Shown here in pieces: positions 49,136 to 53,064 of a DNA stretch of 64,000 nt. The notes under the pieces are model-generated. The model saw nothing but the letters and a program-made list of their open reading frames with translations, was not told where the DNA came from and ran no database searches. Made by a program: the position numbers and the translations under genes. The stretch's first letter is position 1, and each line of letters starts with the position of its first letter. This DNA is from Mobula hypostoma (Eukaryota): the NCBI RefSeq assembly GCF_963921235.1, contig NC_086108.1:3038001-3102000 (forward strand), given 5' to 3'.

Positions 49136-49454
49136 AGAGCTGTGAAGGTGAAGAAAGTCACCAGAGGGACACTGAAGCTGCTGATAGAGGAACAAGCAGA
49201 TATTCTTGGAAGAAGAGGCCTCCTCATGCAATATTATATCACATTTTATGTTAAAGAACAAAGGTAATGACGGGGACAATTTCTACAGTTACAATCCAGT
49301 CATAACGCTTCCTTTGAGTTGCACATAATTTCAAACATCTAGATCTTCACACCAACATAGCCTAAATCAGTGTTAAATACCTCTGTCTCTCCAGCTGCAG
49401 TCATGAACTTGTTACATACTCCTGTTAGGGTGCATTCTCCAGTTACCTTATAAG

Positions 49455-52277
49455 GTAACCGTAGCCTTCAGATGTCATCAGGTGATTCCCAACCTTCACC
49501 GAGTGTTTCGAACCTTAACCACGACACTCGCCAGTTGGTGGGCCGGCAGTGGTGGCCAAATCATTGCCCATCTGCTCCTGGCTTCCAGCTCCCCTCCTCT
49601 CGCCTACTCCAAATCCAACAAGAGGCTCCTTCTGCCTCTTCCCCCATCGTACGAGCTGCTTGTTTTTTGCTCCTTTCGTCCAGGCCCAGATCTGACAACA
49701 ACCACCATGCAGATTTGACTGGGAAACCTCTGCAGCCGATCTCCACAGGGAACAACCATGCCTACCATCCCTCGTCTTTACACTCCTGCACTAAGGGCTG
49801 GTACTTCAAGGCCTTTATCTCGTGGGCCTCTTCCCATCCGTCCTCCCATGGCACAGTCAACTCAACCAGAATTATTTTCTTGTCTTCAGTTGACCACAGT
49901 ACAATGTCCGGGCATAGGGTTGTGTGCACCACATCCAGGAACTGCAATCTCCTTCCCACATCGACCCTCATCTCCCAGGACCTGGCTGTTAGCAGCAGAT
50001 TGGGCTTTGGTTGTTTGGTTATGAAAGGCCTGGCTCCCCCTTTGATGAAGGTGATGGCCTCAAATCTGTGCCAGCCGTCCTCTTCTTGCATCTCTCCCAC
50101 TCTAGTGTGTCAGCAAGAGCCAGAAGCACCTTATCATGGCGCCACCTATACCGTCCTTGAGTTAGAGATGTTTTACACCCGGACAGTATATAAGCAAGTG
50201 TCCCCTCTTGACCACAGAGCTTATAGTTTGGTCCTCTCTCATCCCCCATGTGTACAGATGTAATGGTGAAGGAAGGGTGTTATACACAGATCGCAAGAGG
50301 AAGGAAATACGGAGGGGCTCCAGTCTCCATAACTCTGCCCATGAGATCTTGCACTTGGGCAGATCCCATTTTGTCCAGGCACCCTGGGACCTTTGTTCCA
50401 CTGCCTTTGACATCCGCTTCTCTTCCTCACAGATCCATACTTCTGCCTGTATCATGTCTCACCTGTTCCTTATGCTTGCGTTTCCCCACTGCTGGAAGTG
50501 AACTGAGCCGAGGCCTTGCCACCCGACGCAGGGGTTGCCAATGATATCTCGCAGCTTCAGAGAACACACTGCCTCCTCCACAGCTGCGTTGGCTGCCCAC
50601 TTCTGCCCAGATCTGGTTGTAACGCCTGCTTGCTTTACCAAGGCGTCATTGGAATCTCCCAAGCTTAATAAAGCTCTGTATTTTGCCACCTTGAATTCCT
50701 CCACAACAGATGACAGGGGAAGCTGCAGTTGCCCAGAACAAATGTAGAGGCCCACTGAAGAGAAGCTTGGGGGAACTCCCAACCATCTCCGCAGGTGCTT
50801 GTTGGTTTTCCTCTTGATGCCCTCTACGGCAGTCAGGGGATCTCATAAAGTGTGAAGAGCCAGAGAAGCCTGGGCAGAAGGCTGTATTGGTACAGCCAGG
50901 TCTTGAATGTACCGGGAAGTCTGGATTTGTCGATCTTCTTCAACCATTCGTCTGTCTGCTTCACAGCATTGGTGACATTGGCCCCATCTGTCAGTGACAC
51001 ATTAAACTACTTCCCCAAACGTTTTATCGGATTATCTTCGATGAAAGGGATGACCTCACCCGGAACTTGGAGGCTAAACTTGCTAGTAACTTTGCCCTTT
51101 CTCATCACCATGCACCTGGACTACTTGGCCTTGAAAGACATCCTCGCCCAAGTGGCTACATTACCCAGGGTTTCCAATACCCATCTTGCTTGGACATGTA
51201 ACACAGTTGTTATAGTGATGTCGTCCATGAACCCTCGTAGAGCCGGCTGAACAATGCCCGACTCCAGCGTCAGGCCACGGGTTACATCTTTGCTGTTCAT
51301 TCCCATAATAAATAGGACGGGGGAGGTGGTGGACCCTGTTGGAATCCCCTTCTGGGGGGCCTGCCAACTAGTTGTGAAATGGGCTGCAGTAAATCTGAGT
51401 TTGAATCCTCCTAGGTAGCTGGTGGTCATGTCTCGAATAGCCACAGGGATGTAGTAGTTGTTGAGTCCTTCTGGGATGAGGTCATGTGGAATAGACCCGT
51501 AGGTGTTCGCGAGGTCTAACCAGACAACTGTTAAGTCGCCTTTTTTCTGCTTGGCCTCACGGATCAAATGGCTAATCATTGAGGTGTGTTCCAGACACCC
51601 TGAAAGGCCTGGAATACCGCCTTTCTGGATGGATGTGTTGATATAGCAGTTCTGCGTCATGTAAGAAATCAGCCTCCTTGTGAGCACAGAAAAGAAAATC
51701 TTACATTCCATATCCAGGAGAGAAATTGTCCTAAACTGTGCAATTGTGGAAGAATCCTCTTCCTTTGGAATAAAGCATCCCTCTGCCAATTTCCAACTTG
51801 ATGGAATAGTACCTTTGGCCCAGCTCTTTCTCATGATCTTCCACAGCCTCCGAAGTTTTAGGCTTTATCAGGTAGGCCGCTTGGGCCTGGGGCAGCTGAT
51901 GCTTTAGCTTTCCGGATGATGTCCTGGATTTCCTGCCATGTAGGCTCCTTCACATTCAGCTCAATTGATGGATTTTCCAGTCTACGCACAGGCCGATTGG
52001 TTCCTACTCCCTGACCGCTCCGTGGATCGCTGTGTGCCTCCCGCAGGAACTCCTCTACCTCTGTCTTCAAGCTGAATAGTATACCAAATTTTTGTTGGCC
52101 GAGAGGAGTCCTGGTGAAGCTGAATGGATCTCTCACAAACTGCACTTGCCTGTTCTCTTTCTTCTTTCTTTGCTGTCGCAGATGTTCCGCCCTCCGGAGT
52201 TTGCACAGCTTTTCCCGCAGCATACTGGTTAAGTCCTTGATACCTTCTTTTTCAGCCGGTGAGCTGGTTTTAAACAC
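49455..52277 (-). mobile_element. Hero-clade RLE non-LTR retrotransposon, 5'-truncated and disrupted
   Basis: FRTISLL, QKGGIPG.SGCLEH, WLDLAN.YGSIPH, FMDD (RT); KLCG...ILSGC...YRWRHDKVL; PDIVLWS...ELTVPWE...K..KY, VEIGCRGF (RLE). Confidence 0.88.
49465..49530 (-). ncRNA. Candidate non-circularly permuted hammerhead ribozyme in the Hero 3' UTR
   Basis: CGAGUG-UC^GUGGUU-AAGGUUC-GAAA-CACUCG-(12 nt)-AAUCAC-CUGAUGA-CAUCU; two 6-bp stems abut the conserved core. Confidence 0.65.
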
Positions 52278-53064
52278 TCTATCATTTTGCCCTTGTTGCC
52301 CACTCAGCCAGTTTAGCCATGTCTTAAAGTTTAAAATACATTTAGATCAAAGTGTATATACTTTACACAACCTTGAGATTTATCTCCTTACAAAGAAGCC
52401 CATTAGAGCAAAACAAGGCCATCAAACACCCAGTGTGCAGGGAAGAGAAACAAATACAAATAGTGCAAACAATAAAGCAAGCAAACAGCATTCAGAACTG
52501 AAGTTCACGGTGGCAGGCATCACTGCAGCCAATTCAGAAGGCCCCAGTCAAGCAGTGTCGAGCAAACCCCCGCAGAGCAGTGAGCTGAACCAGCCTGTCT
52601 CTCACCTCTGACCCTGATTTTTTCAATCTGGCCCAGTGCTTAAATCATACAAACCCCAGGCCATTCCTCGCCCACAGGCTCGGGCTATGCTACCTCGATA
52701 AGGCCAGTACCTGAACTTTCCAATATGGCTCATCTGGTAAATCGATCAAATCTCAGATCACTCTTCACTTTGCCTCGCCTCAGCTCTGCCTCATCAATTA
52801 CCTGATTTTTCCAATTCGTCTAGTTTCTTAAATTGATCAAACCTCGGATCTTTCCACGCCTCAGCTCTGCCATATTGAGTTGGCACCAATTCCTCTCCAG
52901 GCCGGATATGCTGTTGTCCTGCTCAGCGAGACTCTAGTCAAACCGCAAAAATGCCAGATCATACAGGCGATTACACTCAACTCCAACAGGGAACAGGCCA
53001 CTGTTTGTAGGGATCGTTTACTAGAAAAAGTGTGAAGAGAGAAAATCTGCAGATGCTCGAAATC

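Follow-up and report, generated by a model that had tools for sequence, protein, structure and literature searches.

Known hammerhead permutations and the locus under study

Natural non-circular permutations of the hammerhead ribozyme, among them type SGC (HRIMA-1), in which the conserved blocks follow the order S, G, C (cleavage site > GAAA > CUGAnGA), were described by Eckert, Friedrich, Weinberg and Weinberg (NAR 2023, PMC10085705). A non-circular ribozyme permutation was shown there for the first time, only in metatranscriptome RNAs of unknown hosts; the 407 type SGC sequences were found as RNA only, in soil, spruce and sludge metatranscriptomes, beside hairpin ribozymes, and the type was observed to cleave in vitro. 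Its authors assumed that the hammerhead blocks are uninterrupted and considered the joining of the far ends of the bridging helix and stem III hard to reconcile with the crystal structure (PMC10085705). The present analysis concerns a 64,000-nt stretch of the Mobula hypostoma genome (NCBI RefSeq assembly GCF_963921235.1, contig NC_086108.1, positions 3,038,001 to 3,102,000 of the forward strand; hereafter the window), on the minus strand of which a motif with the same block order is present in the 3' untranslated region (UTR) of a decayed Hero-like retrotransposon, a long interspersed nuclear element (LINE) of the restriction-like endonuclease (RLE) type. The 3' UTR of this element and its relatives probably encodes a hammerhead ribozyme fold in the order S > G > C, in which a kink-turn (k-turn)-like loop closes a ring and block C is split.

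A preliminary description, made from the letters of the window, had noted that non-circular hammerhead permutations were published, and type SGC is such a case (PMC10085705). In the available portions of the text and supplement of that article, the terms retrotransposon, eukaryote, Danio and reverse transcriptase occur only in the reference lists. A literature search, the coverage of which lay outside subscription journals, returned no paper linking a hammerhead to Hero or to the 3' UTRs of RLE-type LINEs.

Conservation of the hammerhead core

The hammerhead string quoted in the preliminary description was recovered letter for letter at positions 49530-49466 of the minus strand, and its coordinates were likewise borne out. 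On this strand the stop codon TGA of the open reading frame (ORF) occupies 49563-49561. C 49523 is the last letter of the GUC triplet, 49509 the first of GAAA, and 49481-49475 hold CUGAUGA. A strict descriptor, requiring U-H, GAAA and CUGANGA along with 6/6 standard pairs in stem III and in stem I, was scanned on both strands with linker ranges taken from the published SGC type. It gave one match in the 64-kb window (49475-49529, minus strand) and none on either strand when the entire window was dinucleotide-shuffled 200 times.

Relatives were sought by protein in metagenome contigs, so that the search was not biased toward the RNA. The scan yielded 17 loci with 41-68% protein identity; the 3' UTR was reached in six of them, and the motif was present in all six. 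The open frames of L032 (1171 codons) and L033 (1147 codons) both end inside the motif, and that of L036 extends over 706 codons, as far as the contig goes, while the ORF of L031 is partly broken and those of L041 and L039 are decayed. An eight-row alignment was prepared from own_L005, own_L002, L031, L032, L033, L036, L041 and L039. C3, U4, G5, A6, G8, A9, A13, A15.1 and U16.1 were invariant in all eight rows. G12 was replaced by A only in L041 and A14 by G only in L039, which are the two relatives with decayed ORFs, and all the fixed hammerhead core letters were kept in the other six rows (own_L005, own_L002, L031, L032, L033 and L036). The letters expected of a hammerhead core, i.e., C3-A9, G12-A14, A15.1-U16.1 and an H17 other than G, are hence found in this family. 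Among the lineages, N7 was U, A or C and H17 was C, U or A; no other core position varied in the lineages with long ORFs, in which H17 was never G. These two are exactly the positions that are free in known hammerheads. The change of C to A at position 17 was also seen in contigs of runs X10 and X12, which represent two other organisms. L036 is only 50-60% identical to the others in the motif region of the 3' UTR, yet the core and all the helices are kept.

The 3'-end family comprises at least 1387 candidate copies in the 3.48-Gb genome of the window, 40 of which were scored; the scored copies other than that of the window were 91-94% identical to it. All 11 fixed core letters were kept in 62 of the 69 distinct genomic copies covering the core. 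Position 17 was C in 53, T in 12, A in 3 and G in 1 among 70 distinct genomic copies, and since C17-G1.1 is a CpG, the T forms are probably the result of methylation decay after insertion and not ribozyme variants.

Protein-based scans of prokaryote genome contigs and viral contigs returned no relatives. A pattern scan of the viral contigs gave at least 119 matches, and the covariance model gave no more than 15.1 bits for any of the 80 loci tested; these matches are chance. A stricter linear pattern was matched twice in 596 Gb of prokaryote genomes, neither match fitting the covariance model.

Helices, four-way junction and k-turn-like loop

The full structure consists of 44 pairs in seven helices, with 91.3% of cells paired and double changes in 20 pairs, as measured on the same sequences from which the structure was derived. 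None of 500 shuffles reached any of the five measures used, and sliding the partners by 1-3 columns gave 31-48% pairing. Every one of the seven helices had at least one double change. In P1, 88.6% of cells were paired and 8 of the 11 inner pairs showed double changes. Pairing was 96.4% in P2 (two pairs with double changes), 95% in stem II (2/5 pairs), 93.5% in P3 (two pairs) and 95.8% in stem III (3/6 pairs). Stem I was paired in 88.1% of cells, and two pairs with double changes were counted, of which one is an alignment artefact of L039 and one is firm; its fifth pair changes from U-A to A-U in L036. RNAalifold, run without structural input, returned P1, P2, P3 and stem III.

Stems I, II and III adjoin the core without a spacer, which is the arrangement of a three-helix hammerhead. 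The stem II identified here is formed by the five nucleotides before GAAA and an upstream strand placed directly after P2; G10.1 was present in 7/8 rows and the G10.1-C11.1 pair in 6/8, with G.U in L033 and no pair in the decayed L041. P3 joins the segment following the upstream stem II strand to the one preceding the stem I strand of block C. The order UH > GAAA > CUGANGA with pseudoknots, as put forward in the preliminary description, is supported by the conservation of the core and by the covarying helices, and the check proposed there, i.e., conservation and covariation in other copies, showed core and stems kept and covarying in diverged relatives. The features of the window copy, with the evidence for each in brackets, are as follows.

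49569..49582, minus strand: P1 5' strand, 14 nt, within the last ORF codons (P1 covariation; RNAalifold)
49545..49568, minus strand: P2 hairpin with a 7-bp stem, the ORF stop codon TGA inside it (covariation; RNAalifold)
49540..49544, minus strand: stem II strand 10.1-10.5 (GGCCC), no spacer after P2 (covariation)
49533..49538, minus strand: P3 5' strand; P3 bridges the far ends of stems I and II (covariation; RNAalifold)
49530..49532, minus strand: k-turn-like loop, non-bulged strand, N-G-A in the family and GGC in the window copy (conservation)
49524..49529, minus strand: stem III strand 16.6-16.1 (covariation; RNAalifold)
49523..49523, minus strand: C17, with the predicted scissile bond 49523/49522 (G1.1 = 49522) (follows from the core)
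49517..49522, minus strand: stem I strand 1.1-1.6 (pairing)
49516-49515, minus strand: AA linker from stem I to the stem II strand
49510..49514, minus strand: stem II strand 11.5-11.1, GGGUC in the family and GGUUC in the window copy (alignment)
49507..49509, minus strand: core G12 A13 A14 (conservation)
49501..49506, minus strand: stem III strand 15.1-15.6 (covariation; RNAalifold)
49495..49500, minus strand: k-turn-like loop, bulged strand, three variable nucleotides then G, A, A (conservation)
49489..49494, minus strand: P3 3' strand (covariation; RNAalifold)
49482..49487, minus strand: stem I strand 2.6-2.1 (alignment, covariation)
49475..49481, minus strand: core C3-A9 (CUGAUGA) (conservation)
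49469..49474, minus strand: what remains of the P1 3' strand; 10 nt that follow in the family form are deleted (alignment of copies)
49407..49468, minus strand: 3' tail of the element, holding two more hairpins; the copies are homologous as far as ~49407
49564..52346, minus strand: decayed ORF of the element (RVT_1 at 51124-51864)
~49765-50279, minus strand: part of the ORF with CCHC and PD-(D/E)XK-like endonuclease (motifs judged by eye)

Four strands were found to meet without a spacer in every lineage (A9 to P1, P1 to P2, P2 to G10.1 and C11.1 to G12). The core joint, as read from the sequence, is a perfect four-way junction that splits block C between A9 and G10.1. In one stacking isomer, stem II would be stacked on the core and stem III, an arrangement shared by all hammerhead structures, and P1 on P2. 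In the k-turn-like loop, the G of the N-G-A strand was invariant in 8/8 rows and its A was kept in 7/8, whereas on the bulged strand the G, A and A were invariant in 8/8 and positions L1-L3 varied. In a k-turn, G.A and A.G pairs come after a 3-nt bulge, and ion-induced folding is possible when position 3n is G (PMC5061560, PMC4382518). At the level of sequence, the NNN-G-A-A and N-G-A strands of the loop conform to this pattern.

Host element and condition of the window copy

An RVT_1 domain was detected in the minus-strand frames around the motif (E = 6.6e-14), and CCHC-like and PD...E.K-like motifs were recognized by eye downstream of it. The frame of the window element is broken in several places, in line with the decayed ORF noted in the preliminary description. 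In the R2-group (RLE) definition that was used, the reverse transcriptase precedes a CCHC motif and a PD-(D/E)XK-type endonuclease (PMC3636483). A single ORF with this order of domains was found here, and the element is an RLE-type LINE of the R2 group. A protein search with a 506-codon open stretch of the copy L020 returned 174 longer proteins from fishes, lancelets, scallops and mussels. The stretch showed 44-45% identity, over 96-97% of its length, to a Tetraodon 'polyprotein' and a Takifugu 'reverse transcriptase'; other matches were automatically named 'R2'. The Tetraodon and Takifugu records are presumably HEROTn and HEROFr, respectively. HEROTn and HEROFr were named from these two genera (PMC3636483). 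Judged by protein identity, the element is likely to be Hero proper. The domain, the endonuclease motifs and the protein matches together support the earlier placement of the motif in the 3' UTR of a Hero-like (RLE-type) retrotransposon.

When the DNA of L031 and L032 was used to query the genome of the window, only the main family was found, at 75-79% identity, together with one decayed copy, L102. This lone copy (L102:640-900, minus strand; G000:C2) belongs to a second Hero lineage of the same genome; it is 84% identical to L031, carries A at position 17, and is changed at core letters G12 and A6. The 3' UTR of L036, used as a DNA query, gave no match in the genome of the window.

In the 3' tail (window 49407-49468, minus strand), the shape of the first hairpin, compared by eye, is kept in L031, L032 and L033 with a wholly different sequence, and a second, shorter hairpin follows it. 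The two hairpins are likely part of the recognition site of the reverse transcriptase. In the flank of one copy (L025:39-105), a perfect palindromic hairpin was observed that gives matches to Rfam mir-9256 of 59 and 58 bits on the two strands, short of the gathering score of 80, and looks like an inverted repeat of the miniature inverted-repeat transposable element (MITE) type.

The window copy itself was found to be damaged. In a 30-copy alignment, it lacks 10 nt right after CAUCUG that are present in all 29 other copies, and these nucleotides were also present in 67 of the 70 distinct genomic copies fetched. In the family form, they complete the 14-bp P1 helix, which joins the strand directly after CUGAUGA to the last ORF codons. 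Three further changes relative to the family are shared by the window copy and L002: a G to U change in stem II, which breaks one pair; an A to C change in the k-turn-like loop, by which the A of a G.A pair is lost; and a C to U change in stem I, which turns G-C into G.U. L002 (L002:1558-1688, corresponding to window 49465-49590) is located on the same contig, ~134 kb apart, and the 10-nt deletion occurs in the window copy alone; the three common changes point to a small subfamily or a local duplication. The window copy also has a G to A mismatch in the P2 stem. The statement in the preliminary description that the core is intact hence holds for the core letters, while most of one helix strand is lost and mismatches are present in three other structural elements. 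The window copy is best regarded as a dead example, with intact core letters, a deleted P1, and mismatches in stem II, P2 and the k-turn.

Predicted cut and proposed mechanism

The cut predicted between 49523 and 49522 follows from the core letters, in agreement with the preliminary description. It is located 126 nt from the 3' end of the element and, being inside it, cannot define either terminus. The processing of RNA ends or release of units that had been suggested for the motif is not supported. Were cut RNA copied, a large number of copies would be expected to start at G1.1. Thirty genomic copies were sampled with a query lying wholly 3' of the predicted cut. None of the 30 starts at G1.1, and one starts 3-4 nt upstream; the remaining copies are truncated at scattered points or extend past the fetched DNA. 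RNA cut at this site is thus not a frequent template.

Head-to-tail junctions, in which the 3' end of one element is followed within ∼15-70 nt by a conserved 5'-end motif that belongs to another Hero element, were observed in one genomic copy (L028) and in two metagenome contigs, one carrying L033 then L032, i.e., different lineages in tandem, and the other L036. The junction coordinates are L028:1-1500 (minus strand), L033:3600-3860, L036:2300-2390 and L041:2-64. The possibility that the ribozyme cuts tandem Hero elements into units was considered and rejected, as the upstream partial copy in L028, the one tandem of the genome, begins ∼137 nt before the cut and not at it. This upstream partner is a 3' fragment of only ∼250 nt, which fits template jumping, and template jumping accounts for the L028 tandem more simply.

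In the mechanism proposed here, P3 would be joined to stem III via the k-turn-like loop, closing the ends that are free in the published SGC type. The chain would be opened between A9 and G10.1, where P1 and P2 would meet stem II and the core as a four-way junction, and stem II would stay stacked on the G12.A9 and A13.G8 pairs and stem III. The 2'-OH of C17 would attack its 3' phosphate by standard hammerhead chemistry, giving a 3' fragment of 126 nt with G1.1 at its start and leaving a 2',3'-cyclic phosphate. As about 31 base pairs would hold both products together, cleavage would amount to a hidden, possibly reversible nick. A ribosome terminating at the stop codon in P2 would have to melt P1, P2 and stem II, so that the fold would form only on untranslated RNA. 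The RNAs actually copied would be the uncut ones. With low confidence, the role may be to uncouple the ORF from the tail that serves target-primed reverse transcription, through a cut gated by protein or translation. In its complete form, the proposal is that an active hammerhead lying outside all six block permutations is present in Hero elements of fishes, lancelets and molluscs, with an SGC core ringed by a k-turn and opened at A9/G10.1 by a four-way junction holding the end of the ORF and its stop codon, and that a reversible nick, 126 nt from the 3' end, is gated by translation termination and by the protein of the element itself. This proposal is tentative; its probability is put slightly below even, with less assurance than is given to the fold itself.

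Alternative explanations

Several observations weigh against an active hammerhead in the Hero-like 3' UTR. An Rfam scan of the window region, four intact copies and four further loci detected no ribozyme family at E <= 10 or <= 5, an outcome that is expected because covariance models cannot represent crossed helices. The intact core is known from five lineages, and owing to the kinship among the sequences the shuffle control overstates the significance. Block C is interrupted between A9 and G10.1, and at the junction there would be a second stacking isomer, in which stem II is replaced by P1, whose C-G pair adjoining A9 is invariant. Ring closure through the k-turn-like loop is a matter of rough geometry. 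A competing helix, ACCA/UGGU, which the minimum-free-energy fold includes, is paired in 88.9% of cells without covariation and could represent an 'off' conformer. This helix joins positions 47-50 with 65-68 of L005:1559-1689 (window ~49536-49539 with 49518-49521), where ACCA inside the P3 5' region pairs with the stem I strand. The failure of any of the 30 sampled copies to begin at the predicted cut belongs to the same side of the balance. The main rival is a hammerhead-shaped scaffold, descended or convergent, that is kept for recognition by the element's reverse transcriptase or by a host k-turn-binding protein to start target-primed reverse transcription, with cleavage absent or negligible in vivo. 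Proteins of the R2 type recognize structured, pseudoknotted 3' UTRs (PMC12222951), the break at A9/G10.1 is without precedent among known hammerheads (PMC10085705), and mutants of the Penelope-like hammerhead insert normally in vitro, with no RNA-seq reads ending at the cut site (PMC11167929). A mere binding scaffold, however, would have no reason to match all the fixed catalytic letters of the hammerhead, and variation confined to N7 and H17, with G avoided at H17 in the long-ORF lineages, would not be expected of it; published type SGC RNAs with the same four helices do cleave (PMC10085705). Such a scaffold is considered rather unlikely, though it deserves to be taken seriously.

Far less probable are two other readings. 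That the motif is a chance resemblance within an ordinary structured 3' UTR gains something from the very many windows scanned, among which single matches to a loose descriptor are expected somewhere, and from the two occurrences of the bare linear pattern, without the fold, in prokaryote genomes. The shuffled windows, however, held no match; core conservation and covariation of the helices extend to relatives with as little as 50-60% RNA identity, and the extra helices correspond one for one to the type SGC architecture (PMC10085705), so that chance is very improbable. The second reading is the one implied by the preliminary description, a contiguous type SGC hammerhead within 49465-49530 with AGGU/AUCU as stem II. 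These letters do pair in the window copy, and contiguous S > G > C blocks are the published type (PMC10085705). Over the eight rows, however, only 68.8% of cells of this stem were paired, 61 of 500 shuffles did as well and the fourth pair failed in 6/8 rows; in the family form, a G faces an A at the position that is paired in the window copy. Both strands have better partners, one in the 5-bp helix with the upstream strand, i.e., the stem II described above, and the other in the 14-bp closing helix P1 with its eight covarying pairs. The AGGU/AUCU stem was rejected for this reason, and the contiguous form is highly unlikely. The hammerhead fold with a split block C is thus retained as the probable one.

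Comparison with known systems

Type I hammerheads of Penelope-like elements and retrozymes are often minimal and dimeric. They resemble the Hero motif in having a retroelement-borne core, present in very many copies, the role of which in transposition is unclear (PMC4209133, PMC7229834, PMC11167929). In the Penelope-like case, the element's protein is needed for cutting (PMC11167929). They differ from the Hero motif in being ordinary type I hammerheads and in lying within terminal repeats or tandem units of another class of retroelement, with a GIY-YIG endonuclease or none (PMC4209133, PMC7229834, PMC11167929), whereas the Hero motif has a non-circular connectivity and is placed in the 3' UTR of an RLE-type LINE. 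The HDV-like (hepatitis delta virus-like) ribozymes of R2 and other non-LTR (non-long terminal repeat) retrotransposons are, similarly, self-cleaving RNAs in a LINE of the R2 group (PMC3774820). However, these belong to another ribozyme class, and their cut, at the 5' end, sets the terminus of the RNA (PMC3774820), in contrast to the internal cut predicted for Hero. An Rfam scan gave no HDV-like match at the 5' ends of the Hero-like elements. The pseudoknotted, protein-binding 3' UTRs of R2 resemble the Hero motif as conserved, pseudoknotted 3' UTR structures of RLE-type LINEs at the site to which the reverse transcriptase has to bind, and differ in that the abstract describing them reports no hammerhead core (PMC12222951).

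The closest system is type SGC. Its block order is that of the Hero motif; stem I likewise passes directly, over a short linker (2-3 nt; here 2 nt, AA or CA), into the stem II strand that precedes GAAA, a fourth helix, corresponding to P3 here, ties the other sides of stems I and II, and stem I has ∼5 bp with conserved letters (PMC10085705). Type SGC is known from RNA, whereas the Hero motif belongs to an animal-type retrotransposon in genomic DNA. Here the k-turn-like loop joins the ends left free in type SGC, and the second strand is joined too. The published blocks are unbroken (PMC10085705); in Hero, CUGANGA runs into the P1 3' strand, so the motif departs from the rule of uninterrupted blocks, and the chain is opened in block C by a four-way junction with two extra helices.

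The S > G > C kind of hammerhead is thus already published, and the Hero variant appears to be new in its host, in the ring closure by a k-turn, in the split block C and in the overlap with the stop codon. If the proposal is true, it would represent the first non-circularly permuted ribozyme of animal genomes, with thousands of copies. More than a thousand of these would be present in one genome, in the DNA of an animal-type retrotransposon, which would make the ribozyme easy to study in named organisms. Hammerheads would be added to the RLE-type LINEs, for which only HDV-like ribozymes have been known so far, and a LINE would offer a way to test how translation termination, reverse-transcriptase binding and RNA cleavage are linked. 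The split block C would break the working rule of uninterrupted blocks, and descriptors built on that rule would miss the Hero motif. With respect to type SGC, the k-turn would offer a concrete answer to the question raised by the 2023 authors as to how the far ends of the bridging helix and stem III can be joined (PMC10085705).

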